A stretch of DNA of 64,000 nt from an uncultured Candidatus Binatia bacterium (GCA_965219905.1 CBDCOS010000008.1:640183-704182), one strand, 5' to 3'. Shown: positions 17,790-64,000, counted from the first letter of the stretch. Numbers and translations are program-made. Notes: generated from the sequence alone by a model not told the origin.

Positions 17790-17852
17790 GATCGCGTCCT
17801 CCCTCCTGCCGCCGTCGGTGCGGCACACGCCGCCGGCGCCGGATTATCGACA

Positions 17853-20435: not shown

Positions 20436-20494
20436 AGGAATGCGGACGGTCTCGAGTGATCGTCCGGCTCATGGGTGAGCGCGGATCCCGTGAA

Positions 20495-21025: not shown

Positions 21026-21076
21026 GTCCAGTCTCTCCCTCTGTCCTGTGAATCCCGCCGCTGGCGGATTGCATGC

Positions 21077-22474: not shown

Positions 22475-22500
22475 CCGAATGACCCTTTGGCCGCACGGGG

Positions 22501-29823: not shown

Positions 29824-29844
29824 CCGTGTGCCCCGCCCAACACT

Positions 29845-29876
29845 CCGTCATTCCCGCGCAAGCGGGAATCCAGGGG
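29845..29876. repeat. Single unit of the palindromic interspersed repeat family (ccgtcattcccgcgcaagcgggaatccagggg)
   Basis: Core hairpin TTCCCGCG-caa-GCGGGAA. Same family as 31308.., 32641.., 45285.., 53778.. and 55159... Confidence 0.8.
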
Positions 29877-29894
29877 TGGTGGTGACGTTTTGAC

Positions 29895-31163: not shown

Positions 31164-31307
31164 GACAACCACGAGGACACATTGCCCTCACCGTTGGTAC
31201 GAAATGGCGACAGCCCCCACGCGGTCATTCTCCCACTCTCCGTCATGCTCGCGAAACAGTCTGTGGCAACACCCCGCTCACACAGAACATGGCACAGCCA
31301 CCCCGAA

Positions 31308-31590
31308 CCGTCATTCCCGCAGCTTTTCCGTCATTCCCGCGGAAGCGGGAATCCAGGGGCGGAGAGGGGCCAAACGGGCGTATTCCCCGCCTCACCCCGC
31401 CTGGATTCCCGCTTTCGCGGGAATGACGGAGGGGAGCGGAGGATGACGGCTCGGGGCGTTAGCGACACTTCGTATCCGAGTGGAGTCTTGACACAGCTTC
31501 TTCGCGGGAATGACGGCAAGAGCCGTCGATGCTATCTCCTATCCGAGCGCAGTCTTGGTACAGCCTGGGAAGCGGGAATCCTGGGACGCG
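31308..31590. repeat. Cluster of the palindromic repeat family: a partial unit plus one complete ~100-bp palindromic element (31330-31429), followed by further half-units
   Basis: ccgtcattcccgcggaagcgggaatccaggggcgg ... ccgcctggattcccgctttcgcgggaatgacgg. The arms are reverse complements and each arm has its own TTCCCGCG/CGCGGGAA hairpin. Confidence 0.8.
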
Positions 31591-32617: not shown

Positions 32618-32640
32618 CCACCTGATGAACCTGTCCTTTC

Positions 32641-32712
32641 CCGTCATTCCCGCGGCTTTTCCGTCATTCCGGCAGCTTTTCCGTCATTCCCGCGGAAGCG
32701 GGAATCCAGGGG
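32641..32712. repeat. Palindromic repeat family: three tandem partial units (ccgtcattcccgcggcttttcc x3), the last complete through gaagcgggaatccagggg
   Basis: Direct inspection. Confidence 0.8.
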
Positions 32713-32731
32713 AAGGGAGGGAGGTAGTTTC

Positions 32732-39806: not shown

Positions 39807-39932
39807 CGTGATCTCCTTTCGCTGCTCCATCCGGTGCCCCATACGCCGGTGCCCGGACCATCAAGGTAGCTGAAACTACTTGCGCCGCCTGTAAATGTCA
39901 AGGAGGATAACGGCAGGAGGACAGGCACCGAA

Positions 39933-41492
39933 ATGAGCATGACAAGACGCAATTTCATCCAGTCCCTGGGCGCGGTTGCCGGGGTAGAAGCCGTTCACCG
40001 GACCATGCAGGCGCTGGGGTTGTCGGGGGTGGGCGAGGCCCACGCGGCGGCGCCCGATCTGCCCCGCGGCGCCGGGAAGGGGAAGAGCGTCGTCATTCTC
40101 GGGGCCGGCATTTCCGGCATGACGGCCGCCTACGAGCTGTCGAAGGCCGGCTACCGCTGCACGATCCTGGAGGCCACCGGCCGCGCCGGTGGGCGCAACC
40201 GGACGGCGCGCGGCGGCGACGTGATCGAAGAGACCGGCGGCCGGCAACGGGTGGACTTCGACCGCGGGGACCACCTCTACGCCAACCTCGGCCCGGCCCG
40301 CATTCCCTACCATCACCGGGAGATCCTCGGTTACTGCAAGGAATTCGGGGTCGAGCTCGAGGTCTTCACCAACGACAACCGCGCGGCGCTCTTCCACAAC
40401 CGGGAACGCTTCGGCGGCAAGCCGGTGGTGGCCCGCCAGGTCCTCACCGACACCCGCGGCTATATCGCGGAGCTGCTCGCAAAAGCGGTCAACGGCAACG
40501 CCCTGGACAGCGAGCTGACGGGCGAGGACAAGGAGCGCATCCTGGAGATGCTGGTCAGGTACGGCGGCCTGGATCCGGATCGCCTCTACAAAGGCTCGAA
40601 CCGCGGCGGCTATCGCGGCGATCAGGTCCACGCGGGCCTCAAGGCGGGAGACGTAAACGCCCCTCTGGACCTGAGCGAGCTTCTCAAGGCGGACTTCTGG
40701 CAGTACAAGCTCCACTTCAGCCAATTCCTCAACCAGAACCCGACGCTGTTCCAGCCCGTCGGCGGCATGGACGCCATCACCAACGCCTTCGAGCGGCAAG
40801 TCCGGCCACTCATCCGCTATCGCAGCGTCACCAAGGAGATTCGCAAGACGCCCGCGGGCGTTCGCATCGTCTACCGGCAGGCGGGAAAGGGCGCCGACGA
40901 CGCCATCGACGCCGATTTCGCCATCTGCACCATACCCGCGCCCGTTCTGAAGGACATCGCCAACGACTTCTCCGCGGAGACGCGGGCGGTCATCGAGTCG
41001 ATCGAGTTCGTGCGGGCCGTCAAGATCGCCTTCCAGGCCCGCCGCTTCTGGGAGGAAGACCACGCCATCTACGGCGGCATCTCGTGGACCGACCAGGACA
41101 TCACGCAGATCTGGTATCCGCCCTACGGCTACCACCGCGAGAAGGGGATCATCGTCGGCGCCTACATCTGGGACGAAAAGCCCGGACTGCGCTACGGCGG
41201 CATGACCCCGGCCGAGCGGCTGCGGGCCGCCGTCGCCGAGGGCGAGCGCATCCACCCCGGTTACGCCGCGGAGATCGAGTCCGGGGTCAGCGTGGCCTGG
41301 GCCGAGACCCCCTTCCAGAAGGGCGGCTGGCCGAAAAGCCGCCACGAGTCGCCCGAAGCGCTCCAGAGGCCCGACGGGCCCATCCACTTCGCCGGCGACC
41401 AGGTCAGCGGGTTGCCCGGATGGCAGGAGGGCGCGGTGCTGGGAGCCCACATGGCGGTCCGTGCCATCAACGAGCGGGTGATGGGGAAGTAG
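39933..41492 (+). CDS. Flavin-containing amine oxidase family protein with a Tat signal peptide
   Basis: Tat motif MSMTRRNFIQSLGAV; FAD dinucleotide fold VVILGAGISGMTAAYELSKAGYRCTILEATGRAGGR; amine-oxidase C-terminal blocks. Confidence 0.85.
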   Translation: MSMTRRNFIQSLGAVAGVEAVHRTMQALGLSGVGEAHAAAPDLPRGAGKGKSVVILGAGISGMTAAYELSKAGYRCTILEATGRAGGRNRTARGGDVIEETGGRQRVDFDRGDHLYANLGPARIPYHHREILGYCKEFGVELEVFTNDNRAALFHNRERFGGKPVVARQVLTDTRGYIAELLAKAVNGNALDSELTGEDKERILEMLVRYGGLDPDRLYKGSNRGGYRGDQVHAGLKAGDVNAPLDLSELLKADFWQYKLHFSQFLNQNPTLFQPVGGMDAITNAFERQVRPLIRYRSVTKEIRKTPAGVRIVYRQAGKGADDAIDADFAICTIPAPVLKDIANDFSAETRAVIESIEFVRAVKIAFQARRFWEEDHAIYGGISWTDQDITQIWYPPYGYHREKGIIVGAYIWDEKPGLRYGGMTPAERLRAAVAEGERIHPGYAAEIESGVSVAWAETPFQKGGWPKSRHESPEALQRPDGPIHFAGDQVSGLPGWQEGAVLGAHMAVRAINERVMGK

Positions 41493-41559
41493 CGCGGGCG
41501 TGTTCTTGACAACCCGGGGGTAATTGGCTACGCACCCCCAGAAAGCAGCATCCACCCCC

Positions 41560-42435
41560 ATGAAACCCGCACCGTTTACCTACTACTGTCCGGCGACCCT
41601 GGATGAGGCCGTCCGGCTGCTCGACGAGCACGGCGACGACGGCAAGATCCTCGCCGGCGGACAGAGCCTGATGCCGCTCATGAGCCTGCGTCTGGCCCGG
41701 CCCGCCGTGATCGTGGACATGAACCGGGTCCCCGGCCTCGACGCCGTCGCGGTCAACGGCGACGGCATCTTGAGCATCGGCGCGATGACGCGCCAGCGGG
41801 CGCTGGAGCGCGACCCCGGTCTCGCCCAACGGAATCCGCTGCTGGCGGCGGCGGTGCCCCTCATCGGCCACTTCCAGATCCGCAACCGCGGCACGGTGGG
41901 CGGCAGCCTGGTGCATGCCGATCCGGCCTCCGAGCTGCCGGCGGTGGCCGTGACCCTGGGCGCCGACTTCGTGCTCGCCAGCGCCGCCGGCGAGCGGGTG
42001 GTGAGCGCGGAAGACTTCTACCTGGGCTACATGGCCACGGCCTGCGAGGCCAACGAGGTGCTCACCGAGGTCCGCGTGCCGGCGTGGAAGGCCGGCCGCC
42101 TCTGGGCCATCGACGAGGTGGCCCGGCGCAAGGGCGACTTCGCCATGGTGGGCGTGGCGCTCTGGGCGGACATGAACGGCGGCGCATGCGAGGACGCCCG
42201 CGTCACGCTGTTCGGCGTGGGCGGCCGGCCTGTCCGGGTGGAGAAGGCGGAGCAGCGGCTCAAGGGCGCGGCCCTGGACGGCGCCACCCTCGAGGAGGTC
42301 GAACGCATCGTGTTCGAGGAGCTGGACCCCGACTCCGACATTCACGCATCGGCGCTGTACCGCAAGGAGGTGGGCGGCGTCCTCACCCGGCGCGCGTTGA
42401 GCGCGGCCGCGGCGAGGGGCACGGAGGCCGCATGA
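41560..42435 (+). CDS. Molybdenum hydroxylase FAD-binding subunit (CoxM / xanthine dehydrogenase family medium subunit)
   Basis: Start at MKPAPFTYYCPATLDEAVRLL. FAD_binding_5 motifs (ILAGGQSLMPLM...). Stop overlaps the coxS-like start (ATGA). Confidence 0.85.
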   Translation: MKPAPFTYYCPATLDEAVRLLDEHGDDGKILAGGQSLMPLMSLRLARPAVIVDMNRVPGLDAVAVNGDGILSIGAMTRQRALERDPGLAQRNPLLAAAVPLIGHFQIRNRGTVGGSLVHADPASELPAVAVTLGADFVLASAAGERVVSAEDFYLGYMATACEANEVLTEVRVPAWKAGRLWAIDEVARRKGDFAMVGVALWADMNGGACEDARVTLFGVGGRPVRVEKAEQRLKGAALDGATLEEVERIVFEELDPDSDIHASALYRKEVGGVLTRRALSAAAARGTEAA

Positions 42436-45284: not shown

Positions 45285-45533
45285 CCGTCATTCCCTTGCA
45301 CTTCCTCCGTCGCTCCCGCGAAGAGGCTGTGACAAAACTCGCCACGCGACGACCTTACGAAACCGTCATTCCCGCGAAACAGGGTGGTCAATACCCCATC
45401 CGAGAGAGACAACGTCGCCCAAAACCGTCATTCCCGCGAAAGCGGGAATCCAGGGGCGGGGAAGGGTGTGGCGGCCGCGCACCCCGCTCCACCCCACCTG
45501 GTTTCCCGCTTTCGCGGGAATGACGGAGTATGG
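45285..45533. repeat. Cluster of the palindromic repeat family: two degenerate half-units plus one complete ~100-bp palindromic element (45425-45526)
   Basis: ccgtcattcccgcgaaagcgggaatccaggggcgg ... ggtttcccgctttcgcgggaatgacgg. Arms are reverse complements. Confidence 0.8.
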
Positions 45534-45597
45534 GGCGGGAAGGACGATTCGGTAGCCGTTGCCCTCCCCCTCACACCGCGGGCTGCGGCCGGTATCG

Positions 45598-45883: not shown

Positions 45884-45997
45884 TCAGTGGTAGTCGGTCA
45901 GGTCGACGTCGTACGCGTCACCGTCCTCAATGCGAAATGTCGCTCGCCAGTTGCCAGAGATCGAGATGCAACGACGCAGCAGTGAATTTATGCTGAA
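45884..45997 (-). pseudogene. higB: HigB toxin remnant: only the C-terminal ~25 residues ([24 protein letters not shown]) survive, preceded by an in-frame stop
   Basis: Minus-strand translation just upstream of higA ends ...[25 protein letters not shown], matching the HigB/RelE-fold C-terminus ([23 protein letters not shown]). A TGA sits 38 codons upstream with no start codon between. Confidence 0.5.
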
Positions 45998-46028
45998 TCA
46001 CCGTGGCTGGAAGAGAAGGGCCGATCCC

Positions 46029-48239
46029 TCAACCCCCATCCCTGAGCGCGCGCCACACCCGTTCTGGAGTCAGCGGCAGGTCGCGGATTCGCACCCCGGT
46101 GGCCCGGGCGAGGGCGCTGACCACGGACGGGGCGACGGAGAAGATGCCGCCTTCGCCCATGCCGCGGCTGCCGTAGGGGCCGATGCCGTCACGGTTCTCC
46201 ACCAGGTACGTGTGGTACTCCGCCGGCAAGTCTTCGAATTTCGGAACGCGGTAGTCGACGAGGTTGGAGTTCAGCAACTGGTGGTCGTCGTGCACCATCT
46301 GCTCCATGAAGGTGTGGCCGATGCCCATCATGGCCGCCCCTTCCTCCTGCCCGATGCAGTGTTGCGGGTGGATGGCCTTTCCGACATCCGCCGCGGAAAC
46401 ATAGCTCACGAGCTTCAGCGCGCCGGTGTCGCGGTCGATGTCCAGCTCGGCGACCCCCATGCCCACCTCCCAGAGCACCGGCGTCTTCCACGCGACCATC
46501 TCGGGGCCCATGGTGCCGCGCCCGACGATCTCGCCGGCGACGGCGCCGAAGCGCCGGGCGAGCGCGTCGGTGAAGGACATCGCCTGTTCCCCGGCGACAA
46601 GCCGCCCCTCCGACAGCTCCACCTTTCCCGCCGCGACCCCGAACGCCTTCCCGGCAATCGCGCGCAACTGCCGCTTGAGGTCCCGGGCGGCGGCCTGGAC
46701 CGCCCGCCCCATGACCGTGGTGGAGCGGCTGGCCCCGGTGGAGTGGTCATAGGGCGTGACGGTGGTGTCCACGGGCACCGCCTGGACCCGGTCGCGCGGC
46801 AACGCCAGCTCCTCGGCGACGATCTGGGTGAACGTCGTCTTGACGCCTTGCCCCATCTCCGTGCTGCCGGCCAGTATCGACACGTAGCCGTCGGCGCCCA
46901 GCCGCACCAGCGCCACCGACACCGGCAATACGCCGCCGGCGTTGGTGGAGCCGCAGGCCAGGCCCAGCGGCGCCTTGCGGTCGCGGGCGCGCCGCCGCCA
47001 GCGGGACCCCGAGACGAGCCGCCGGAGACTGGAATGCAGGTTCACGTCCACGGGCCGGAGCTTCGGCTGGAGCCTCTCGCCCCTCGTGAGCAGGTTCCGG
47101 TCGCGCAGCTCCACCGGGTCCATCCCCAGCTCCGCCGCGATCTCGTCCATCTGCGACTCGCCGGCGAAGATGGTCTGGGGCGCGGCCACGGAGCGGAACG
47201 AGCCCGCGGAACCGGCGTTGGTGTGGACCGAGTAGACATCGCTCCGGAGGTGCGGGATCCGGTAGGCGCCCAGCACCCGGGTGGCGGCGAGCTGCGCCAC
47301 CATCCGAGTGTTCTCGGTGAATGCGCCGGTATCGAGGTGGATCTCCGCCTGCCGGGCCACCAGGGCGCCGTCGTTCATCACCCCGGTCTTGAGCTTCACC
47401 CCGGCGCCGTGGCGCCGCACCGTCACCATGGCCTCGGGGACCGACAGGCAAAGGCGCACCGGACGGCCCGCCTTGCGCGAGAGCAGCACCACCAGCGGCT
47501 CGAACTTGCTGTAGGACTTGCCGCCGAACCCCCCGCCCAGAAACGACACCTGCAGGCGCACCCGGGAGCGGGTCAGGCCGAAGATGCGCGCGATGTCCCC
47601 CTGCACCAGGAACGGGTGCTGCGCCGAGGACCACAGATCGATGCCGTCCGCGCCCCATCGGGCCACGGCGCCATGGGGCTCCATGCTGTAGTGGTAGACC
47701 GAGGGGAACGTGTAGCGGGCCTCGAAGATTCGGTCCGCGGCGGCGAAGCCCTCTTCCACGTCGCCCTGTTCCACCCGCTCATGGGCGCATACGTTTCCGG
47801 GGGCGTCTTCGTGGACCAGCGGCGCCCCCGGCGCCAGGGCCGCGTCCGTGCCCAGCACCGACGGCAGCTCCTCGTAGTCCACCTCGATCAGCGCCAGGGC
47901 CGCCTCGGCGGTGTGCTCGTCCTCCGCCGCCACCGCCGCCACCGGCTCGCCCACGTAGCGCGCCTTGTCCATGGCCACCACCGGGCGCCCGTTGTAGAAC
48001 GGGTCCAGGCCGCCCAGGTCGTCCGCGGTGACGACCGCGCGCACGCCGGCAAGCGCCTCCGCGCGGCTGGTGTCCATGGCCCGGATGCGCGCGTGCGGCA
48101 ACGGGCTTCGCAGGATCCGCCCCTCGAGCATCCCCGGCAGCACGATGTCGCCCGTGTACCTGGCACGCCCAGTCACCTTGTCAACGCCGTCCACCCGGGG
48201 AACATTGCGGCCCACGTGCCGGAAACTCGATTGCGGCAT
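46029..48239 (-). CDS. Second xanthine-dehydrogenase-family molybdopterin-binding large subunit (lone CoxL-like paralog, no adjacent M/S subunits)
   Basis: 736 aa. MPQSSFRHVGRNVPRVDGVDKVTGRARYTGDIVLPGMLEGRILRSPLPHARI; full MoCo-binding architecture. Confidence 0.85.
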   Translation of the reverse strand: MPQSSFRHVGRNVPRVDGVDKVTGRARYTGDIVLPGMLEGRILRSPLPHARIRAMDTSRAEALAGVRAVVTADDLGGLDPFYNGRPVVAMDKARYVGEPVAAVAAEDEHTAEAALALIEVDYEELPSVLGTDAALAPGAPLVHEDAPGNVCAHERVEQGDVEEGFAAADRIFEARYTFPSVYHYSMEPHGAVARWGADGIDLWSSAQHPFLVQGDIARIFGLTRSRVRLQVSFLGGGFGGKSYSKFEPLVVLLSRKAGRPVRLCLSVPEAMVTVRRHGAGVKLKTGVMNDGALVARQAEIHLDTGAFTENTRMVAQLAATRVLGAYRIPHLRSDVYSVHTNAGSAGSFRSVAAPQTIFAGESQMDEIAAELGMDPVELRDRNLLTRGERLQPKLRPVDVNLHSSLRRLVSGSRWRRRARDRKAPLGLACGSTNAGGVLPVSVALVRLGADGYVSILAGSTEMGQGVKTTFTQIVAEELALPRDRVQAVPVDTTVTPYDHSTGASRSTTVMGRAVQAAARDLKRQLRAIAGKAFGVAAGKVELSEGRLVAGEQAMSFTDALARRFGAVAGEIVGRGTMGPEMVAWKTPVLWEVGMGVAELDIDRDTGALKLVSYVSAADVGKAIHPQHCIGQEEGAAMMGIGHTFMEQMVHDDHQLLNSNLVDYRVPKFEDLPAEYHTYLVENRDGIGPYGSRGMGEGGIFSVAPSVVSALARATGVRIRDLPLTPERVWRALRDGG

Positions 48240-48468
48240 GGCTTCTCCTGGCTGTCTCGCACGATTGAGTGACTACGGACCGTCAACCATACCACAGTTC
48301 CGGTACACGCGGTCGCCGCCGGGGTCGGAAGCCGCATTCTTCTTGAATCGCGGATTGAGTTGCGGTAATTCGAAGTACGTCAACGGTCGTGTCCAGGTGG
48401 AGTGGTCGGCGGTGGTTGCACCTTTACCCGCGCGGTCCAAATGATCTCAAAGACGATAGGAATGCGAG

Positions 48469-53739: not shown

Positions 53740-53777
53740 CCCGACCCCCAAAGCCCGCCCTCATCCTCTCCCCGCAC

Positions 53778-53843
53778 CCGTCATTCCCGCCTCCCCTCCC
53801 GTCATTCCCGCCTCCCTCCCGTCATTCCCGCGGAAGCGGGAAT
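53778..53843. repeat. Palindromic repeat family: two degenerate units plus the left 25 bp of a full element cut by the IS3 insertion
   Basis: ccgtcattcccgcctcccctcccgtcattcccgcctccctcccgtcattcccgcggaagcgggaat | IS. Confidence 0.8.
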
Positions 53844-53882
53844 TGAACCGCTCCGGGTTTACCGGAGACGGAATAGAGTGAG

Positions 53883-55108
<1,226 letters not shown>

Positions 55109-55158
55109 GACCCCATCCTCTCAAAGAGTTGGGTCTCCGGTAAACCCGGGGCGGTTCA

Positions 55159-55280
55159 GAATCCAGAGGCGGTGGTGTGGCGGCTCAATTACCCCGGCCC
55201 CACTCAGCCTGGATTCCCGCTTGCGCGGGAATGACGGAGGATGCGCGATCAGGGGCGGCAATCCAGGGGCGGCGGAGGGG
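55159..55280. repeat. Palindromic repeat family: right ~79 bp of the element split by the IS3 (55159-55237), plus an extra partial unit
   Basis: gaatccagaggcgg...cctggattcccgcttgcgcgggaatgacgg then ...caggggcggcaatccaggggcgg. Confidence 0.8.
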
Positions 55281-55385
55281 CAAAACGCGGGTCCGTACAA
55301 AATGGGCGACATTTCACGGTGTTAGCCGGTGCCCACTTCGCGTCGGCGCGACAGAGTCAGCCTTGCGGCGTCCTTTGACTTTCTC

Positions 55386-55582
55386 GTGTTGACATGTATG
55401 GTGATTCTTGAAGCACCGTTCGGATGCACGTCACCAATGTCGGTACAGGCCGGGAAGCGCACCGCATACATCAAGGTAACCCGTGTTGACATGTATGGTG
55501 ATTTTTTGAAGCCCCGTTCAGGAGGAGGGCACCAATGTCGGCACCGGCCGGGAAGCGCACCGCATACGTCAAGGTAACGCTC
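55386..55582 (+). repeat. Tandem direct duplication (97 bp + ~100 bp, ~85% identical) of the integrase promoter / 5' coding region
   Basis: Copy 1 is gtgttgacatgtatggtgattcttgaagcaccgttcggatgcacgtcaccaatgtcggtacaggccgggaagcgcaccgcatacatcaaggtaacccg. Copy 2 is gtgttgacatgtatggtgattttttgaagccccgttcaggaggagggcaccaATGtcggcaccggccgggaagcgcaccgcatacgtcaaggtaacgctc. Only copy 2 keeps the AGGAGG RBS. Confidence 0.8.
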
Positions 55583-56917
55583 AACAAGCGCAACGTCGAG
55601 TCCCTCAAATCCGCGGAGAAACCCTTCATCGCGTGGGACGACAAATTGACCGGTTTCGGCCTTCGAGTCCAGCCTACCGGCGTTCGCTCCTATATCGTCA
55701 ACTACCGTGTCGGCGCCGGCGGGCGAAAGGCCGCCAACCGGCGCCTGGTCATAGGACGCCACGGACGTGTGACCGCCGACCAGGCGCGGCGCCTCGCCCA
55801 GGAGACGCTGGGGCGCGTTGCCGCCGGTGACGATCCCGCAACGGAGCGTAGCCATAGCAGAACTGTTCCCACCTTGCGCGAGGCCTTCGAGGAGTACCTC
55901 GCCGCCGGGCCGAAGCGCAAGGAGAGTACTGTCGCCGTTTACCGCCGCATCGTTTACTACAATCTTGGCGCGTGGGTCGACCGCACGCTGGACAGCATTG
56001 ACCGGCGCGACGTGGAGAAGTGCTTCCTCCGGCTCACGAGCGAATCCGGATGGGTGCAGGCCAACAGCGCCATGAAGATGCTGCGTGTGCTCTACCGCCG
56101 CCATTGCATCGACTTCCAGGGGCTGCACAACCCGGTCGACCAGTGGCGCGCGGCCGGCGGGCGGCCCCACCGCCCGCGGCGGCGCACGATCCAGCCCCCG
56201 GCCGAGGTGCTGCCGCGCTGGTACCGGGGCATCGAGACCGCGGTGCCCAACCCGGTCGCACGCGATGCCTTCCGTTTCGGCCTTTACACCGGCATGCGGC
56301 GAGCCGAGGTCTTCGGCCTGGAATGGGCCCGCATCGACCTGGACGGGATGACTTTCCGGGTCGAGGACACCAAGACCGGCGAGCCGTTGGAACTCCCCGT
56401 CACCCGCCAACTCACCGCCATCCTTCAGCACCGTTTCGCCGAGCGCGAGCGTTTTCCCGAGCATAGCCGGAGTTGGGTGTTCCCGTCCGAAACTGCCGGG
56501 TCGGGACACATCAACAGCGGAACGCAGTACCTGAATGCGCGGATCAGCGAGGCGGGCGGGGCGAAGTTCTGGTTCCATGCGTTGCGCAACTGCTTCATCA
56601 CCGTCGCCAACCGCGACCTGATGCTGCCGGTGAGCCTGACCAAGCGGCTGGTCAACCATGCGAGGTCTCATGACGTGACCGAAGGCTACGCCGCCGACTG
56701 GACGACGGAGCAGCTTCGCGACGCCGCCCAACGCATCGCCGATCGTATCGACGAGTTGATTCGCGCGGGCGTCCCGACGCGGGAGGCTGGTTCGCGGGCT
56801 GAGAACGTCGTACCCGGGTATGGCGACCTTGCCGTCGGAAGCACCGCAGGACTGGCCCAAGTTTCAGTGCGCGAACCCTCTCGCTCATCGCCCGGTTCCC
56901 CGACCGGCCCCCTCTAG
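55535..56917 (+). CDS. int: Tyrosine-type site-specific recombinase / phage P4-like integrase (N-terminal DUF4102 arm-binding domain)
   Basis: 460 aa. The N-terminus LTGFGLRVQPTGVRSYIVNYRVGAGGRKAANRRLVIGRHGRVTADQARRLAQE is the P4-type integrase arm-binding domain. The C-terminal catalytic region has FHALRNCFIT (active-site R) and LVNHARSHDVTEGY (H and catalytic Y). Confidence 0.85.
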   Translation: MSAPAGKRTAYVKVTLNKRNVESLKSAEKPFIAWDDKLTGFGLRVQPTGVRSYIVNYRVGAGGRKAANRRLVIGRHGRVTADQARRLAQETLGRVAAGDDPATERSHSRTVPTLREAFEEYLAAGPKRKESTVAVYRRIVYYNLGAWVDRTLDSIDRRDVEKCFLRLTSESGWVQANSAMKMLRVLYRRHCIDFQGLHNPVDQWRAAGGRPHRPRRRTIQPPAEVLPRWYRGIETAVPNPVARDAFRFGLYTGMRRAEVFGLEWARIDLDGMTFRVEDTKTGEPLELPVTRQLTAILQHRFAERERFPEHSRSWVFPSETAGSGHINSGTQYLNARISEAGGAKFWFHALRNCFITVANRDLMLPVSLTKRLVNHARSHDVTEGYAADWTTEQLRDAAQRIADRIDELIRAGVPTREAGSRAENVVPGYGDLAVGSTAGLAQVSVREPSRSSPGSPTGPL

Positions 56918-57046: not shown

Positions 57047-57149
57047 GTTGACAAGGTGTTTACTTATCTTTAATTTTATATTGGAATGCTTATCTAAGAA
57101 GGTAATTTCATTAAGAAAATTTATGAAAAGTATATTGTTTTAACATAAA
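57047..57149 (+). promoter_or_regulatory. Sharply AT-rich (~25% GC) ~100-bp island upstream of lipoprotein gene 1, containing TTGACA and several TATA-like hexamers: likely promoter / nucleoid-protein-binding region
   Basis: ttgacaaggtgtttacttatctttaattttatattggaatgcttatctaagaaggtaatttcattaagaaaatttatgaaaagtatattgttttaacataaa, which contrasts with ~68% GC on both sides. Confidence 0.4.
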
Positions 57150-57338
57150 CATAATGTTTTGGTTAAGGAGCCGTCACGGCACTGGAAACGGAAATGAAAA
57201 GATCAACAAGGAGGTCGCGATGCCAGTGTTCATAGCGAATAGACAGTGGGTGGCCGTTCTCTTGGCGGTGTTCATGGCGGTCGCTTTGAGCGCTTGCGGT
57301 GGCGGCGGCAGCACTAGTGCCCCTCAGATGCCGGAGCC
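57150..57338 (+). repeat. Inverted repeat arm A: 189 bp, 100% identical to 63565-63753 (reverse complement); covers a CATAAT -10-like hexamer, the AAGGAGG RBS, the ATG and the first 40 codons (signal peptide + lipobox) of the lipoprotein
   Basis: Base-by-base comparison of 57150-57338 with the reverse complement of 63565-63753. Both flanks diverge immediately outside. Confidence 0.85.
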
Positions 57339-58938
57339 GGGGCCGATGCCTGACCCGCAAATGGCCTGCGAGGATGCGGGCGGCCGGTATAACGCCGACG
57401 GAACGTGCACCTCGGCTGAGGATCTCGCGGCGGAACAACTGGCGATGGAGCGCGGGGCTATCAGCACGGCCATCACGGCGGCAAGCACCGCGGTCAACGC
57501 CGTGAACAACGACTCCACCGATGCCCAGGTGACCGCCGCCGATACGGCGATCACGAACGCCATAAACGCAATCGCGGCCGCGGCCAATGTTCCGGCCGAA
57601 GAGAAAGCCGCGAACACCGAGACGGTCAATGCGCTCGCAACCCAACTTTCCGGTGCCAAGATGGCCCGCATGACCGCCATGGATGACGCCCAGAAGGCCG
57701 CGGATATGGCCATGGCCGTCACAGCGGCGAAGCTGTATGCGGGGATCGATCCGCAGAATGGCGCCACCGCAACTGTGGCCGCCGGTACTGCTCTGCTCGC
57801 AGGGGAGCGGGCCGCCGCCTACAACAACGCCGACCAGCCCAGCGCCGGCACCAGTGCCGACACACGCATCATGGTGGGCATCGAGACCGCTGCCGTCGTC
57901 GCCCTGTCGGAAGACAAAAAGACGATGGTCGCCGACAACCACGGCTGGGCAGGCAAGCGGTACGCCGACCCCGCCGGCGGTGACAGCTATGAGGCTGTCG
58001 TATACTCGAATGTCGGCGAGCCGACGATGGGCAAGAAGTTCGGCGGCGCGGCAGCAAACGACGAGTTCGAGTACGCATTGACCAACGGAGCGCTCCCGTC
58101 CAACACAGCTTGGGTGGCCTCGAGAGTAGCTCTCACGGGCGTCACCCGGACTGCCGGCACGGAAACGTTCAAGTTGCCGACCCCAAATCCGAGCGGCGCG
58201 GTGAACATCCTCGTCCCCGGCAGCTATCACGGCGTGTCCGGCACCTACAGTTGCGTGCCTAGCGCTCCCGCCAACGGTTGTTCGGCTGCGGTAGCCGCAA
58301 AAGGCTTCACGCTTGTGACCACCGGCGGCGACGCCTGGACCTTCACGCCCACCGACGCAAACGCCAGAGTCACAGACACCCCGGACGCCGCTTACGCCTC
58401 GTACGGCTGGTGGATCCACAAGACCGAGAACGGCAAGACCTTCATCGCGAGCGCATTCACGGATGAAAAGGGTACGGTTGATGCTGCCTCAGGTCTCGAC
58501 ACCTTGCAGGGAACGGCGACGTACATGGGCGGCGCGGCCGGCAAGTACGCTCTCAGCAGTTCGACAGGCGGCACCAACGACGCCGGTCACTTCACCGCGA
58601 AGGCGACGCTTGAGGCCGATTTCAGTGACAACTCGGTCACGGGCACCATCGACAACTTCATGGGTGCGGATGGTGAGACGCGAGACTGGTCAGTCGAGTT
58701 GAAGAAAAACACGATCGGAGCTACTGGGCCGATCAGTAGCGACGGTACCGCCGCCGCCGATGGAGCGAAAACGGTCTGGACCATCGGCGGAACGGCCGCT
58801 GGTGCTGCCGGCGGGTGGACCGGGGCTCTCAGGGACAACGGTACCGACGGGGTTCCGAAGGTCGCGACCGGAACGTTCTACTCGGAGTTCGAAACAGCAG
58901 GCAAAATGGTTGGCGCGTTCGGTGTGAATAAGCAGTAG
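57220..58938 (+). CDS. Surface lipoprotein with a TbpB/fHbp-like C-terminal beta-barrel domain (paralog 1)
   Basis: Strong RBS aaggaggtcgcgATG. Signal MPVFIANRQWVAVLLAVFMAVALSAC with lipobox LSAC plus a GGGGS linker. The mid region is Ala-rich and helical. The C-terminal ~150 aa (GTATYMGGAAGKY...GHFTAKATLEADFSDNSVTGTIDNFMG...TFYSEFETAGKMVGAFGVNKQ*) resembles the 8-strand barrel of neisserial fHbp/TbpB-type SLAM-dependent lipoproteins. Confidence 0.65.
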   Translation: MPVFIANRQWVAVLLAVFMAVALSACGGGGSTSAPQMPEPGPMPDPQMACEDAGGRYNADGTCTSAEDLAAEQLAMERGAISTAITAASTAVNAVNNDSTDAQVTAADTAITNAINAIAAAANVPAEEKAANTETVNALATQLSGAKMARMTAMDDAQKAADMAMAVTAAKLYAGIDPQNGATATVAAGTALLAGERAAAYNNADQPSAGTSADTRIMVGIETAAVVALSEDKKTMVADNHGWAGKRYADPAGGDSYEAVVYSNVGEPTMGKKFGGAAANDEFEYALTNGALPSNTAWVASRVALTGVTRTAGTETFKLPTPNPSGAVNILVPGSYHGVSGTYSCVPSAPANGCSAAVAAKGFTLVTTGGDAWTFTPTDANARVTDTPDAAYASYGWWIHKTENGKTFIASAFTDEKGTVDAASGLDTLQGTATYMGGAAGKYALSSSTGGTNDAGHFTAKATLEADFSDNSVTGTIDNFMGADGETRDWSVELKKNTIGATGPISSDGTAAADGAKTVWTIGGTAAGAAGGWTGALRDNGTDGVPKVATGTFYSEFETAGKMVGAFGVNKQ

Positions 58939-58963
58939 TTGCTGATCATCCTTCCTGCTCAGG

Positions 58964-59002
58964 TGAGGGCGGCGGCTTTGGTCGCCGCCCTTTCTCTTTC
59001 CT
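58964..59002 (+). terminator. Intrinsic terminator of lipoprotein gene 1 (gggcggcggctttggtcgccgccc stem-loop followed by a T-rich tract tttctctttcc)
   Basis: Direct inspection. A homologous copy follows lipoprotein gene 2. Confidence 0.55.
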
Positions 59003-59120
59003 CCAATGGCCGCCGTCGCTTGAACCTCGCCTGATCCCGTTTAGCGTGGCTGCAACCCTCGGAGTCCTCTCGCTCTGAGCGTCCGGCACCGAACCCATCG
59101 GCCCCGGGTTCCGCGAACCC

Positions 59121-59410
59121 TGTCGTGTCATATATGGTCCGCTCCGCTTGGCAAGGATCTGTTTGGGTGAGGAGGCAGGTCAGTTGCAGTCATATATCCG
59201 GCCTCTCGATGGGAGCGTCTCCGCTTCCGGGCCCTGATGGATTCCGCACACGCCCGCCTCAACAACTGAGCGGTCTCGAAGACCGTGACATTGACCAGGC
59301 TCTGGGCGTGCCGGATCGACCTGTCTGCCATCATTCCACTGCACCTTGCGCAACTTGGAGGTTTCCGAGTTCTTCCCATCTTGCTGGGCGTTTCTGGGTT
59401 GACACTGACA
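59121..59410 (+). repeat. 290-bp element X copy A with ~10-bp terminal inverted repeats (TGTCrrTGTC ... GACACTGACA); ~95% identical to copy B in inverted orientation; MITE-like or IS-terminus-derived
   Basis: Left end tgtcgtgtcatatatggtcc, right end ctgggttgacactgaca. The reverse complement of 61039-61313 aligns over ~275 bp with a few mismatches. Confidence 0.5.
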
Positions 59411-59615
59411 CTCCGCAACAACCGAATCCACTGTTGTCAATGGCAACCGAAAACTGCTCATTTTTGGCAATCAAAAACTGCACATTCCGAGAAGGGCGCC
59501 GGTACGGGTCTGACGCTCTTCGGTTGGTTTCGGTGGGGCGAGAGGGGTTGGACGGAGGAAGCGTAGCGACCGGAGTCCAATCCCTCTCGCGTGCCGGATC
59601 GGCAGGCCCAGCCGT

Positions 59616-60413
59616 TCACAGCGCGACCCCCTGGCCGGACTGCTCGGACTCGGGTCGCATCAGGTTCCGATGCTCTCGCATCCGGTAGCTGTTGCCGCGG
59701 ATGTTGACGATGTGGCAGTGGTGCAGCAGCCGATCGATGAGGGCCGCGGCCATCACCTCGTCGCCGAGGACACTGCCCCATTCCTCGAAGCCCTTGTTGG
59801 AGGTGAGCACGGTGGAGGCGCGCTCGTGGCGGGCGTTGATGAGCTGGAAGAAGAGCACGGCGCCGTCCTGGTTCACCGGCAGGTAGCCGATCTCGTCCAC
59901 CACGAGCAAAGCGGGATGAGTGAGGACCCGCAGCCGGCGGGACAACTCGCCGGCTGCCTTGGCCTCCATCAGGGACTCGATCAGTCCCGCGAGGGTTCCG
60001 TAGTAGACGCGGCGGCCGGCCTGGGCGGCGGTGATGGCGAGGCTTATGGCGAGATGGGTCTTCCCGACACCTGGCGGGCCGAGCAGGATGACGTTCTCGC
60101 GTCGGTCCACGAACCCGAGTTCGTGCAGGCTCTCGATCTGCTCACGCTTGATGCTGGGCTGGAAGGCGAAGTCGAACTGGCCCAGGGTCTTCACGGCCGG
60201 CAGCCGCGACGAGCGCATGGCGGCCTGCAGGCGGCGGTTGTTGCGAAGCCCTATCTGGGCGTCCAGCAACTGCTCGATGGCCTCGGCCGCGGACACCGCG
60301 CCGCCGTCGGCCTGGGCCAGGATGCCGTCCACGGCTTCCAGAGCGCCGGGCATCTTGAGGTCGGCGAGCATCTCCCGCAGCCGGTCGCGCCGGGTGCCTG
60401 TCTCGGCCCTCAT
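59616..60413 (-). CDS. istB: IS21-family helper ATPase IstB
   Basis: 266 aa. Walker A NVILLGPPGVGKTHLAISLA and Walker B LLVVDEIGYLP. The start overlaps the istA stop. Confidence 0.85.
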   Translation of the reverse strand: MRAETGTRRDRLREMLADLKMPGALEAVDGILAQADGGAVSAAEAIEQLLDAQIGLRNNRRLQAAMRSSRLPAVKTLGQFDFAFQPSIKREQIESLHELGFVDRRENVILLGPPGVGKTHLAISLAITAAQAGRRVYYGTLAGLIESLMEAKAAGELSRRLRVLTHPALLVVDEIGYLPVNQDGAVLFFQLINARHERASTVLTSNKGFEEWGSVLGDEVMAAALIDRLLHHCHIVNIRGNSYRMREHRNLMRPESEQSGQGVAL

Positions 60414-61038
60414 GACACGGCCTCCGCATAGACGCTGAGCGGGCGGCGCTCGACGTCGACGGTGACGGGCAGGGGGCGCCGAGCCGGTTGCGGTGCCCTG
60501 CGGGCGCCGAGACGCCGGTAGGGAGCGCTCGCCAGCGGCAGCAGCGCCTGGCGCTCGTCGCGTTCGAAGCGATCCACCGGGCGTTCTCCGGTGGTGCCGT
60601 GCCGGCGCACGTTGGCGGTCCCCTTGAGCCACGACAGTGCCTGCTCGTTGAGATCCTCGTCGCTGGCGAACTCCCGGCCGTAGAAGAAGCTGTCGCGGAG
60701 GTAGCGGATCGGCCGCTCCACCTTGCCCTTGGTCTGGGCTCGGTAGGGCCGGCAGGCCCGCGGCCGGAACCCCCAGTGGGCGGCGAAGCGCAGGAAGTCC
60801 GCGTTCAGCACCAGCTGGCCCCCGCCTACGCGGCCGTCCGACAGCACCACCGAACGCATCTGGTCGAACAGCAACTCCTGCGGCACCCCGCCGAACCACC
60901 CGAAGGCGCTCTCCAGCCCCTCGATCAGCACCTCCATCGTCTGTCGCCGGTAGAAGCGCAGCCACAACAGCCGCGAGTGGCTCAGGACCGTCACCAGCGC
61001 ATGCCGCCGGCCCCAGGGCAGCGTGAACGAGAATGTAC
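60410..61038 (-). pseudogene. istA: IS21-family transposase IstA, N-terminally truncated (DDE core and C-terminal part only)
   Basis: Reads ...RRHALVTVLSHSRLLWLRFYRRQTMEVLIEGLESAFGWFGGVPQELLFDQMRSVV.... The first 16 codons of the track ORF are encoded by element X, so they are not IstA. Confidence 0.7.
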
Positions 61039-61313
61039 GAAACGCCCAGCAAGATGGGAAGAACTCGGAAACCTCCAAGTTGCGCAAGGTGAAGTGGAAT
61101 GATGGCAGACAGGTCGATCCGGAACGCCCAGAGCCTGGTCAATGTCACGGTCTTCGAGACCGCTCGGTTGTCGAGGCCGGCGTGTGAGAAATCCATCAGG
61201 GCCCGGAAGCGGAGACGCTCCCATCGAGGGGCCGGATATATGACTGCAACTGACCTGCCTCCTCACCCAAACAGATCCTTGCCAAGCGGAGCGGACCATA
61301 TACGACACTGACA
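61039..61313 (-). repeat. Element X copy B (inverted relative to copy A); right end truncated by ~16 bp at the junction with istA
   Basis: The plus strand ends ...ggaccatatacgacactgaca, which as a reverse complement is tgtcagtgtcgtatatggtcc, matching the copy A left end. Confidence 0.5.
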
Positions 61314-61454
61314 AGCGTCCTGCGCGCAGCTTGCTCCTGGGGTTCGCTGAAACGGGCGCCAATGGGATCGGCGGTGGAGGTCCAGAGCAGAAGGACCGCG
61401 AGGGTTACGCCCGCGATGAACTGGATGAGGCGGCAGTTCAAGCGGTGTGTAATT

Positions 61455-61495
61455 GGAGGAAAGGGAAAGGGCGGCGACCGAAGCCGCCGCCCTCA
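61455..61495 (-). terminator. Intrinsic terminator of lipoprotein gene 2 (gggcggcggcttcggtcgccgccc stem-loop + T-rich tract on the minus strand), homologous to 58964-59002
   Basis: Plus strand reads ggaggaaagggaaagggcggcgaccgaagccgccgccctc; its reverse complement matches the gene-1 terminator apart from 2-3 substitutions. Confidence 0.55.
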
Positions 61496-61520
61496 AGCGC
61501 CCGGGAAGGATGATAAGAGA

Positions 61521-63683
61521 CTACTGCTTGTCCGCGCCGAACGCGCCGACCATCCGACCGACGGAGTCGTACTCAGAATAGAACGTGCCGGTTGCAGTGG
61601 TAGGGACGTCGCTGCCGTCTCCGGCCGGGGGGTCTCCGAGCATTTCATCGTACATCTGACCGGACCAAGTGCCAGACCTCGGTGCCGAGGTTCCGTCGAT
61701 CGACCACGTCGTGCCCATCGTCTCGTTAGCGGCAGTGTTGGTATCATCAGTTGTAGGAGTGGCAAACGCACCAGTAGTGCCCCAAGGAGCACGGTGCAGT
61801 GACACGCTCCATGGCACCGACTCACCGTTGGCCATGAAGTTGTTGAGCGTGCCGGTGACACCTGCGGTGGCGCCATTCCCGAACTTGGCCGTCAACTCAG
61901 CATCCGCCGTGAAGTGGCCGCCGTCGCTGGTGCCGTCGAGCACTTTATTCTTCGAGTAATCCAGCGCGAACTTGCCGGCGGCGTGGCCGGTGTAGGTGGC
62001 GCTGCCTTCGAACGTGGCGGCGGCGGGATCAGTAGTCAGAGCGGTAGTACCATCGCCCGCTACCGTGCCAACCACACCCCTGAACACGCTGGCTGCCGTC
62101 GGCATGCCGTCCTTGTCCTTGCTCACCCACCAGCCATAATACAGGTAGTTGGCATCGGGCTGATGCGCCATCGCGCTCTCACCGGCGTCGGGCTTGAAGT
62201 GCCAGGTTCCGCCCAATGAAGTCGGGCTGCCCTTGCCGTCGTTGCTCGAGGAGCAAGCCCCCGTGCAACGGTATATGCCCGGCGCACCGTCGTAGGTGCC
62301 TCGGGTGGTGAACGCAGAATCATCAACGTCATTATACGAATGATTCTGGATTCCGGGGTGCAGGAAGTCGTCTGCCATAACCTTCGAGAGGGCGGCGCCT
62401 GTGTCGACAGTGCCGCCGTTGACCACGGTCACATAACCCTTGATCGCGGTGTACGCTGGCCCGGTACCGGCGTTTGCGTCTGCGAGGACATTCCCCGCAT
62501 CGGCATATGAGACCGTCTTTCCGGGACCCTTGTTGTTGTACACCACGGCCGCGTTCATCACCTTCGATTCGGCGTTCGTGTGGGCGTAGTTCGTGCCCGT
62601 CCAACTGCCCAACGAGCCGGCGGGATCACCCGCCTTGAGTGTCACCGAGGCTGGGTTGGTGGCGCCGGGCAGCGCTCCCGCGCCTAGAGCGGCATCAATC
62701 ACGAGGCCGGACGACGACAGGGATACCGGCGTAGTAGCCGAATCGATGTTGTCTAGCGCGGTCGTGCCAGTTGTGGGAGTCCCCGCCAGCGCCGCGAACA
62801 ACTCCTTGCCCGTCTTCGCCATGGCCACCTTCGCGGCCTTTTCGGCCTCGTCCTCAGCCTCCTCGAAGGCCATTTGCGCCGTGCTGATCGGCGCCGCCGC
62901 ATTGTTCGCCTCTCTCTGATACGGAGCCTTTTCGTCGTCGGTCAGGTCCGCGCCGCTCGTGATCGCGTTGTTCAGGGCGGTGAGAGCGTTGTTGGCGGCG
63001 TCGAGTTGCGCCTGCGTGGGGGTCGAGCCGGAAAGCGCCGCCAGTGCGGTCTGAAGCATCGTGGAAGCACTATCCAACTCCGCCATCTGGTTCGTCCGGC
63101 GCGTCGCGGTGTCGATCCCGCCCTGCGCCATGTCCACGGCCTCCACAGCGTTGTCCAGCATCATCTGGTACATCGACGTGTCGTCGACGTCGACCGCATC
63201 GGCGATCGCCTGCCGAAGCCCCACGATGGCGGCCCGGGCAGCGTCAACCAAAGCCTGGGTCGACAGGTCGGACGTGTCGATCATGCCAGCGGCGTCCATC
63301 AGGGCCTGTTTCTGCTCGTCCGCGCGGGCCGCCATGTTGATCGCCATGATCCGGGCATCGACCGCTGCCTGGAGCGTTTCGCCCTGTGCGGCGGTAACGT
63401 CGGCCTTCACCGCGTCGTAGGCCGCCTGGGCGTCTTCCGCCGTGACCGCCGCCGCGATGCTCGCGAGCGTCATGTTAACCGTGTTCTCTTGGGGCGTCAG
63501 GCATGCACCATCCACCCAATGATTGCCCGCGTCCGTGCACATCTCCTCCGCCGTCGGCGGCATCGGCTCCGGCATCTGGGGGGCACTAGTGCTGCCGCCG
63601 CCACCGCAAGCGCTCAAAGCGACCGCCATGAACACCGCCAAGAGAACGGCCACCCACTGTCTATTCGCTATGAACACTGGCAT
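61521..63683 (-). CDS. Surface lipoprotein with a TbpB/fHbp-like C-terminal beta-barrel domain (paralog 2, 720 aa, larger variable mid-region)
   Basis: The first 40 codons are identical at the DNA level to paralog 1. The C-terminus ...GSATYTGHAAGKFALDYSKNK...GHFTADAELTAKFGNGATAGVTGTLNNFMANG...TGTFYSEYDSVGRMVGAFGADKQ* is ~50% identical to the paralog 1 barrel. The central region is diverged, Ala/Thr/Asp-rich and helical. Confidence 0.65.
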   Translation of the reverse strand: MPVFIANRQWVAVLLAVFMAVALSACGGGGSTSAPQMPEPMPPTAEEMCTDAGNHWVDGACLTPQENTVNMTLASIAAAVTAEDAQAAYDAVKADVTAAQGETLQAAVDARIMAINMAARADEQKQALMDAAGMIDTSDLSTQALVDAARAAIVGLRQAIADAVDVDDTSMYQMMLDNAVEAVDMAQGGIDTATRRTNQMAELDSASTMLQTALAALSGSTPTQAQLDAANNALTALNNAITSGADLTDDEKAPYQREANNAAAPISTAQMAFEEAEDEAEKAAKVAMAKTGKELFAALAGTPTTGTTALDNIDSATTPVSLSSSGLVIDAALGAGALPGATNPASVTLKAGDPAGSLGSWTGTNYAHTNAESKVMNAAVVYNNKGPGKTVSYADAGNVLADANAGTGPAYTAIKGYVTVVNGGTVDTGAALSKVMADDFLHPGIQNHSYNDVDDSAFTTRGTYDGAPGIYRCTGACSSSNDGKGSPTSLGGTWHFKPDAGESAMAHQPDANYLYYGWWVSKDKDGMPTAASVFRGVVGTVAGDGTTALTTDPAAATFEGSATYTGHAAGKFALDYSKNKVLDGTSDGGHFTADAELTAKFGNGATAGVTGTLNNFMANGESVPWSVSLHRAPWGTTGAFATPTTDDTNTAANETMGTTWSIDGTSAPRSGTWSGQMYDEMLGDPPAGDGSDVPTTATGTFYSEYDSVGRMVGAFGADKQ

Positions 63684-63753
63684 CGCGACCTCCTTGTTGA
63701 TCTTTTCATTTCCGTTTCCAGTGCCGTGACGGCTCCTTAACCAAAACATTATG
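63565..63753 (-). repeat. Inverted repeat arm B: 189 bp, 100% identical (reverse complement) to 57150-57338
   Basis: See arm A. Upstream of this copy (63754-64000) the sequence is GC-rich and coding-like, not AT-rich as upstream of copy A. Confidence 0.85.
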
Positions 63754-64000
63754 CTATGGCTGCTCTGGAGGAGGCGGCGGTGCGCCCGTCGTCAGCTGCA
63801 TCACGGTGCACGGTGGCGATTGCATTACGCCGGAGGCATTCGCGGAGTCGGCGGTGGAGCGCGCGCACGCGTACCGGTCCATTGATGGTTTCCGGAACCA
63901 GTGGGGGTTGGAGCACATCAAGGCGGACGTGGCCTATCGCCATCTCGAGCTGCTCAAGGGCCCGGACGCCCAGCCCGGCGCCGGAGTGACCCTCGGCTTC

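Follow-up and report, generated by a model that had tools for sequence, protein, structure and literature searches.

The stretch of DNA considered here, the window, comprises 64,000 nucleotides from an uncultured Candidatus Binatia bacterium (GCA_965219905.1 CBDCOS010000008.1:640183-704182). Near its right end, two lipoprotein genes, referred to as LpA and LpB, face each other in convergent orientation, and their 5' ends form a long inverted repeat, the two arms of which enclose a segment of 6.2 kb. These components are located as follows, with positions counted from the first letter of the window:

57150-57339, plus strand: arm A, the shared 5' block of LpA (blastn and repeat search)
63753-63564, minus strand: arm B, the shared 5' block of LpB (blastn and repeat search)
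57220-58938, plus strand: LpA, a lipoprotein of 572 aa, convergent with LpB
63683-61521, minus strand: LpB, a lipoprotein of 720 aa, convergent with LpA

The inverted repeat at this place is real. An initial reading of the DNA, made from the sequence alone (the sequence-only reading), had located it correctly as 189 bp of perfect identity, while the repeat search and blastn give 190 bp in inverted orientation with 1 mismatch (99.5% identity, E 5e-98) and a longest perfect run of 174 bp. The sole mismatch, T versus C at 57324, is synonymous within a Pro codon. All of the elements that had been assigned to the repeat (CATAAT, AAGGAGG, ATG, signal peptide, LSAC and GGGGS) were indeed found in the arm. 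CATAAT starts at its first base, and a leader of 70 nt with an AAGGAGG ribosome-binding site (RBS) leads to the ATG (57220 in LpA, 63683 in LpB); the coding part, of 120 nt, specifies the signal peptide, the lipobox LSAC (Cys26), the GGGGS linker and 10 more residues. The first 40 aa of LpA and LpB are identical. Straight after the arm, similarity at the DNA level is gone and the bodies of the two genes cannot be aligned as nucleotides, while the proteins can be aligned only over the C-terminal ~240 aa, where they share 41% identity (E 9e-46) and not the ~50% initially proposed. LpA and LpB are thus paralogs with a long shared block of upstream non-coding and 5' coding sequence, followed by a variable remainder. 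The LpB protein sequence is identical to the database entry P0122, which is on the same contig (807,910 bp). Folding of the leader RNA was not unusual (z -0.9), and a structured riboregulator in the leader was dropped as a candidate on this ground.

The two arms are preceded by different sequences:

57047-57149, plus strand: AT-rich island of 103 bp with 21% GC, abutting arm A; candidate promoter/UP region
63754-64000, plus strand: 5'-truncated S8 (subtilase) lipoprotein gene fragment, running off the window

The AT-rich island is the lowest-GC spot of the whole window (in 100-bp windows) and precedes arm A only, with arm B abutting the dead S8 gene. It is absent from every related locus. The sequence-only reading had proposed a promoter at the first copy alone; the island is one-sided, as described, while a consensus promoter scan revealed no sigma-70-type site upstream of either LpA or LpB. 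Within the island, which is a candidate promoter on its base composition, TTGACA-17-TAATTT can be read at 57049-57077. On the opposite side, the DNA outside arm B had been described as GC-rich and coding-like, and this description holds, with its identity now given as a truncated S8 peptidase lipoprotein gene. The fragment is cut just ahead of its own lipobox Cys, lacks a start codon and signal peptide, and reads in frame 0 as ...YGCSGGGGGAPVVSC...WGLEHIKADVAY...GAGVTLGF. An intact S8 N-terminus (MLLRNPAAIRFAVLFLSFALGGCSGGGG...) is present in a related locus, L004.

Recombination at the arm, as had been proposed, is supported by alternative combinations of flank and body in L004 and L005 and by the mosaic nature of the family. 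L004, an independent short-read assembly from a different sample, is 88-95% identical to the window. Its positions 1270-1710 correspond to window 64000-63564 (95%) and contain the same breakpoint between the S8 fragment and CATAATG that is found at arm B. After the arm, L004 continues with an LpA-type body (87.5-88.5% identical to 57447-58031 and 58333-59387), followed by a 270-bp block described below. In L005, an integrase remnant (about 90% identical to 56335-56742) lies upstream of a chimeric lipoprotein gene, the N-terminal half of which is of LpB type (83% to 63713-62810) and the C-terminal half of LpA type (about 78%). Relatives thus contain each of the two junctions that inversion between the arms would create. 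In L001, a contig of a Candidatus Binatia metagenome-assembled genome (MAG), an LpB-type gene stands behind a MEKHLA gene, with similarity to the window starting about 20 nt upstream of the ATG. LpB-type bodies are therefore seen behind three different flanks in three genomes. Whatever the history of these loci, in the sequences compared one and the same junction is followed by the LpB body in the window and by an LpA-type body in L004. This supports considering the arm as the boundary where flanks and bodies were exchanged, and the locus as a recombination hotspot through which a surface protein varies.

The ages of the junction and of the arm identity can be compared through L004. The S8 pseudogene adjacent to the arm has diverged by 6% between the window and L004. 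In the arm itself, a single substitution precedes a 3-nt indel that lies about 165 nt into the arm, giving 4 differing columns where 10 would be expected (Poisson P 0.03). As the S8-arm junction is older than the split from L004, and as the two arms of the window differ at only 1 of 190 positions, the arms were kept alike long after the junction had formed.

The combination of a shared 5' end and a diverged body is not limited to LpA and LpB. In 4 pairs of family members lying on the same contig, the N-termini are identical or nearly so for 40-280 aa, after which identity falls abruptly to 15-45%. The shared part spans 40 aa in the window, about 80 in P0150/P0231 (the NCBI loci OXK82_07790/07780, with one gene between them), about 240 in P0007/P0018 and about 280 in P0129/P0169. 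Comparisons across genomes present a similar picture: LpA and P0175 share 75-97% identity for 160 aa and then 20-50%, and LpB shares 65-90% with P0129, P0170 and P0184 for 280 aa and then 10-57%. As judged from these alignments, even the closest cross-genome relatives are chimeric, and mosaicism runs through the whole family.

Inverted pairs with shared 5' ends were found at three other loci (L002, L013 and L030), two of which adjoin P4-type integrases. L002 contains a 9.6-kb inverted duplication in which two convergent lipoprotein genes are enclosed by a pair of integrases on each side, with identity decreasing from 98-100% on the outside to 72-84% in the 3' halves of the genes. L013 presents mirrored modules of a lipoprotein gene and a Slam gene that have only a 111-nt RBS and signal-peptide block in common (93%). 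In L030, tandem integrases stand head-to-head with a lipoprotein gene. On this contig, a more distant family member of 766 aa is also present in two divergent copies that stand head-to-head in inverted orientation (15405-17301 versus 19798-21692). The copies and their upstream regions are 92-98% identical, and ~2.5 kb of unrelated genes separates them. Across the other pairs, the shared block can be as short as 111 nt or as long as about 900 nt, and its identity is graded. A tandem locus with a lipoprotein gene on either side of a Slam gene (L025) has no 5' block in common, as would be expected if long identical blocks persist best when inverted, an orientation in which recombination between them flips the DNA and does not delete it.

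Integrases or their fragments were found next to family members in the window, L002 (four copies), L005, L007, L011 and L030. This adjacency is much commoner than chance, while a role for the integrases in arm exchange is a minority hypothesis. The tandem pairs of P4-type (Arm-DNA-bind_3) integrases lie at 7339-9692 and 14586-16815 in L002 and at 7194-9750 in L030, and those of L002 and L030 are 55-61% identical to one another. The window integrase is only about 30% identical to these enzymes and is oriented differently. Short AT-rich patches were also noted just upstream of the lipoprotein start in L002 and L030.

Profile searches gave no family for the products of the two genes. With Pfam and NCBIfam at E 10, neither LpA nor LpB was assigned, the sole NCBIfam match being sub-threshold and confined to the signal peptide; a profile of 75 homologues found no match among PDB sequences, and an SLP-type Pfam domain was found in 0 of about 240 homologues. 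Among the homologues listed, the sole precomputed Pfam entry is PF06810 on P0208. Both proteins carry MPVFIANRQWVAVLLAVFMAVALSAC-GGGGS, with the lipobox Cys26 being invariant in the 75 homologues. The AlphaFold model of LpA, built on the alignment of these homologues, has a predicted local distance difference test score (pLDDT) of 87.8, with residues 1-42 of low confidence or forming a disordered linker. The predicted plan is a Cys-loop, a three-helix bundle (66-175), a beta handle and a C-terminal 8-stranded barrel (432-571), and a Foldseek search of the PDB with this model returned exclusively NHBA, TbpB, fHbp and LbpB as its 14 best hits. The AlphaFold2 model of LpB (pLDDT 82.9) is organized in this same way, but its helical region is longer (64-298) and its handle and barrel differ from those of LpA; it matches the TbpB C-lobe and fHbp with a probability of 1.00. 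These predictions support a handle and 8-stranded barrel of the TbpB/fHbp/NHBA type in LpA and LpB. The resemblance to TbpB and fHbp that the sequence-only reading had proposed is thus upheld by structure prediction and fold search and is not seen by Pfam profiles.

According to Hooda et al. 2017 (PMC5449769), Slam-dependent surface lipoproteins are defined by a lipobox, a handle, an eight-stranded barrel and linkage to Slam, an outer-membrane protein (DUF560/SlipAM). Among 24 related loci from Joint Genome Institute (JGI) metagenomes, 14 have a Slam gene directly downstream of the lipoprotein gene on the same strand. In L001, a gene with SlipAM and TPR_Slam domains is located upstream of the LpB orthologue, which is 87% identical in nucleotides; the MEKHLA-domain gene (836-1303) lies between the two. 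No Slam gene was detected by tblastn in the 64-kb window, and the idea of a decayed Slam copy downstream of the two genes was abandoned on the same negative result. For the Slam dependence initially claimed, linkage to Slam is thus seen in relatives and not in the window itself. The best reading is that LpA and LpB are Slam-type (type XI secretion) surface lipoproteins, with surface display being predicted from the modeled folds.

The family is large. A word-indexed search scored more than 900 hits, and clustering at 50% identity gave 3,299 clusters with E <= 1e-3, 846 of them with E <= 1e-30. The few named members come from MAGs labeled Paracoccaceae, Rhodospirillales, Rhodospirillaceae and Deltaproteobacteria. 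The MKWU01 contigs are ones which we take to be a sponge metagenome. Sponge-associated Binatota are documented in the literature. A literature search on sponge or Slam links found nothing usable. The DNA pattern of the signal peptide matched a single genome contig (L001) and had no match in the JGI metagenomes. As no relatives were found in viral contigs or plasmids, there is no evidence for phage or plasmid cargo. Taken together, LpA and LpB belong to a large, unannotated, highly mosaic family of Slam type from apparently sponge-associated bacteria, with a Binatia-like host for the window.

The 3' ends of the two genes are also related, and the homology continues inwards to an insertion sequence (IS) at the center of the locus:

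58965-58992, plus strand: LpA intrinsic terminator, a 12-bp GC-rich stem followed by a T-rich tract
61470-61488, minus strand: LpB intrinsic terminator (hairpin scan)
59125-59394, plus strand: inner 270-bp repeat, copy A (3' anchor), 97% complementary to 61039-61308
61308-61039, minus strand: inner 270-bp repeat, copy B (repeat search and blastn)
59395-61038, minus strand: truncated IS21-family element at the center of the palindrome-like structure

The terminators and a downstream element of 290 bp had been described as homologous at ~90-95%. Homology is present but uneven: identity is 79% for the C-terminus and terminator (58864-59007 versus 61595-61452), falls to about 76% over the following ~115 bp, and reaches 97% only in the 270-bp block. 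The LpA terminator hairpin is conserved in L024, L027 and L029, and the 270-bp block recurs in L004 at 94% identity, downstream of the LpA-like gene. Copy A of this block ends ...CTTGCTGGGCGTTTC, abutting the IS21 terminus, and both copies stop at the same nucleotide, where one meets the IS end and the other the middle of istA. Within the element, which the sequence-only reading had not mentioned, istB is intact (59616-60431; Pfam IstB_IS21 6e-81), while only the C-terminal part of istA is present, from 60410 to about 61038 (rve on a 225-aa fragment). We considered the 270-bp repeats as terminal repeats of IS21 and dropped this possibility, because homology runs on outwards from them at 76-79%. 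The central IS21 probably reflects the origin or remodeling of the inverted arrangement and stands outside the mechanism. Two different IS21-like termini, both with GGCAACCGAAAACTGC, were noted at window 59388-59460 and L004 3681-3733. In the window and in L004, these two insertions are <=7 nt apart at the end of the 270-bp block, which suggests either a target hotspot or a shared old insertion.

To the left of arm A lie an IS element and an integrase, at the place where the sequence-only reading had named an IS cluster and a P4-type tyrosine recombinase:

53844-55158, minus strand: IS3-family element, the left border of the plastic region
55535-56917, plus strand: P4-type tyrosine integrase of 460 aa, reading toward LpA (Arm-DNA-bind_3 1.4e-15, Phage_integrase 7.7e-12)

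The IS3 element contains orfA (54788-55108) and orfB (53883-54788), with Pfam matches to HTH_Tnp_1 and rve/HTH_21, terminal inverted repeats of 26 bp (53844-53869 / 55133-55158) and an ALIL frameshift pseudoknot (54714-54830; Rfam, 112.6 bits), besides which the Rfam scan of the window gave nothing. Arm A and the integrase are 230 bp apart. A tandem duplication affects the 5' end of the integrase gene, with direct repeats D1/D2 at 55385-55480 and 55482-55578. This 97-bp tandem duplication (55385-55578, 86-96% identity) spans the integrase start codon and upstream sequence, and may be the remnant of a second, deleted integrase, as in the tandem pairs elsewhere. No att-like direct or inverted short repeats or core dyads were found around the integrase, and no tRNA gene is found within the 64-kb window; the integrase could therefore not be linked to the edge of an island or to either arm. 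Its Pfam domains present the architecture of integration/excision enzymes and not that of an invertase, and no serine or Piv-type invertase was found among the open reading frames (ORFs) of 52-64 kb that were scanned against Pfam. The inversion driven by the neighboring integrase that the sequence-only reading had envisaged is accordingly left without att-like or short core repeats linking the enzyme to the arms.

On the right side, the truncated S8 gene has counterparts. S8 genes or fragments were noted beside lipoprotein genes in three genomes (window 63754-64000; L004 3-386 and 935-1515; L005 4312-5268), with the Peptidase_S8 gene of L005 being near a related lipoprotein gene. The neisserial protease NalP, also an S8 lipoprotein, releases NHBA and LbpB from the cell surface by cleavage. 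By analogy, it is possible that the S8 lipoprotein protease and the surface lipoprotein are functionally paired.

Further observations concern the rest of the window. Repetitive extragenic palindrome (REP)-like GC-rich repeats of 40-130 nt occur at 29843-29882, 31302-31516, 32640-32724, 45362-45566, 53770-53843 and 55174-55243. The same repeats are found in L001 and L004 and, as a sequence trait, support a common (Binatia-like) lineage of the three. Six long ORFs (561-790 aa; 11557-13929, 15017-17245, 16953-18893, 20456-22543, 39876-41561 and 45930-48272) had no Pfam match at E 1e-5. Some of these may be spurious frames in DNA of 66% GC, and none resembles LpA or LpB by tblastn.

In the reading that we favor, and to which we give an about even chance, LpA and LpB are convergent paralogs diversified by homologous recombination, through inversion or conversion, at their conserved blocks. 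Each gene would consist of a lineage-typical 5' block, a variable body (helical bundle, beta handle and barrel) and a conserved 3' block made of the last barrel strand, the terminator and downstream sequence. The 5' and 3' blocks would serve as homology anchors for general (RecA-type) homologous recombination, and an arm homology of 190 bp is the kind of substrate that such recombination uses. Gene conversion would keep the arms near-identical, a crossover in the arms would invert the 6.2-kb segment and exchange the bodies between two upstream contexts, namely the AT-rich island beside the integrase and the dead S8 peptidase gene, and crossovers inside the bodies would give reciprocal chimeras like P0044. 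We infer the recombination pathway, the continuation of the exchange and a difference in expression between the two sites that would alter the displayed variant. The regulatory outcome would depend on only the AT-rich side being transcribed.

This reading has some weaknesses that need to be kept in mind. The evidence consists of assembled contigs, and the swaps are seen between genomes that are 5-20% diverged and not within one population, such that the swapped junctions may be traces of old and infrequent exchanges. Simple inversion does not account for L004, as its further-left flank (IS3 end and REP repeats) resembles the A side of the window. The high conservation of the arm between genomes could stem from selection on the leader and signal peptide instead of recombination. 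In dispersed paralogs of other genomes the signal peptides are similar and not identical, which also counts against the proposal. Finally, the promoter asymmetry is one of composition only, and the locus is surrounded by a clutter of IS elements and broken genes, in which rearrangements are to be expected by chance.

In an alternative that we regard as somewhat unlikely, the genes are static paralogs in a decaying plasticity zone, and one recent event left the arms alike. That event, for instance an inverted duplication associated with IS21 or one conversion tract, would have pasted the 5' end of one gene onto the other and destroyed the S8 gene; exchange would have ceased and would have no effect on function. 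Such an event fits the truncated central IS21, with both 270-bp repeats ending at the same nucleotide, as well as the IS3 element, the duplicated integrase 5' end and the truncated S8 gene around the locus and the many single-copy family members that have no partner (such as L003). However, the breakpoint between the S8 gene and the arm predates the split from L004 (6%), yet the arms of the window differ at 1 of 190 positions; one junction is followed by different bodies in the window and L004; and independent lineages show the same combination of a common 5' end and diverged bodies. An assembly artefact, namely a collapsed or chimeric repeat or a fold-back read, is extremely improbable. While long-read fold-back chimeras can yield inverted duplications, the halves of this one are strongly diverged (41% at the protein level), which is never so in fold-backs, the arm B junction is reproduced in the independent L004 assembly, and both proteins are full-length with confident predicted folds.

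Rather improbable, in our view, is a programmed site-specific inversion of the shufflon type, the model of the sequence-only reading, in which the adjacent tyrosine recombinase would act on a core site in the arms and flip the 6.2-kb segment at high frequency, moving either body behind a single promoter in the AT-rich island. The one-sided island would suit such a switch, and so would the closeness of the P4-type integrase to arm A, the tandem integrase pairs standing head-to-head with family members in L002 (at both arms) and L030, and the integrase fragments upstream in L005, L007 and L011, an adjacency far above chance. Nonetheless, an arm-type DNA-binding domain is typical of integration/excision enzymes and not of invertases, and the low identity (~30%) and different orientation of the window integrase relative to the L002 and L030 enzymes also count against this model. 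Moreover, short dyads or att-like repeats were not found, many family loci have no integrase, and the shared blocks, graded and 111 to about 900 nt long, fit homology-driven exchange and not a fixed core. A broader proposal, which we put forward as unlikely but worth stating, is a dedicated diversification system for Slam-type lipoproteins in sponge-associated bacteria, including Binatia, which lie outside the Proteobacteria. Inverted pairs with homogenized 5' cassettes, often with tandem P4-type integrases, would then undergo frequent, possibly recombinase-assisted inversion and conversion that switches the expressed body and makes chimeras, as a shufflon-like antigenic variation in an animal symbiont and not in a pathogen.

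For homologous recombination at conserved blocks, the reading that we favor, the sap locus of Campylobacter fetus is among the closest known systems. Its sapA homologues have a conserved 5' region and a single promoter, and Dworkin and Blaser reportedly found the inversion among them to depend on RecA. Both systems involve surface-protein paralogs in opposite orientation that have a block of upstream non-coding and N-terminal coding sequence in common and then diverge, with a segment of similar size (about 6.2 kb here) and with homologous recombination, which is proposed in the present case. They differ in that the sap promoter lies inside the invertible segment between divergent cassettes, while here the genes are convergent and the candidate promoter lies outside; in that the sap block is about 600 bp with eight or so copies, as compared to 190 bp with two in view; and in that sap switching is experimentally based, while the present locus is known from sequence comparison. 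Rearranged flank-body combinations and a chimera, as expected of a cassette system of the sap or Neisseria pilE/pilS type, are seen in L004, L005 and L001, and so between genomes only.

The invertible segments of phage Mu (G) and P1 (C) and that of Moraxella pilin use short sites (26-34 bp), with the serine invertases Gin and Cin or the Piv invertase. The proposed logic is alike, with a constant 5' part and alternative variable 3' parts in opposite orientation. In those systems, however, the constant part lies outside the segment and the invertases are dedicated, whereas here the constant part is the 190-bp repeat itself and no invertase-type enzyme was found among the ORFs scanned. In the Tsr shufflons of Bacteroides, a tyrosine recombinase encoded beside SusC/SusD-like outer-membrane protein genes swaps bodies behind one promoter through 5' inverted repeats. 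Tyrosine recombinase genes beside surface-protein paralogs with inverted-repeat 5' ends are common to both, but Bacteroides uses short sites and recombinases that have no arm-binding domain of the P4 type, whereas here the integrase association is statistical only and block lengths vary. In site-specific inversion switches (Gin/Hin/Cin, Piv, FimB/E, Tsr shufflons), the inverted repeats contain a short recombinase core site; the inverted repeats of the window are 190 bp long, no core site could be defined, and no similar short repeats lie near the integrase.

The known Slam-dependent, TbpB-like lipoproteins include TbpB, LbpB, fHbp, HpuA, NHBA, the hemophilin HphA and PmSLP (PMC5449769; Grossman et al. 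2021, PMC8406197), and the system is described as proteobacterial (PMC5449769, PMC8406197). LpA and LpB resemble this cargo in their lipobox and flexible linker, their handle and their predicted C-terminal eight-stranded barrel. They differ in having no Pfam, NCBIfam or PDB sequence-profile match, in adding an N-terminal Cys-loop and a long helical bundle, in occurring as several paralogs per genome, in lacking a Slam neighbor, and in a host that is Binatia-like and apparently sponge-associated rather than a Proteobacterium.

Most of what is known about Slam-dependent lipoproteins concerns proteobacterial pathogens, in which they act in iron piracy and immune evasion and serve as vaccine antigens. 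In the present case, this fold is predicted for a very large, profile-invisible family (~3,300 clusters at 50% identity) from uncultured bacteria that are apparently associated with sponges. Their genomes carry several copies, and cassette-like recombination has left clear signs in the family. What is new is an unannotated branch of Slam-type lipoproteins organized as recombining inverted paralog pairs, the themes themselves being known. An alignment of the family could seed a new profile and end the annotation of its members as 'hypothetical'. If the exchange is ongoing, it would extend the Slam/type XI secretion system beyond Proteobacteria and would let animal symbionts vary their surface toward host recognition, phagocytosis or phages.

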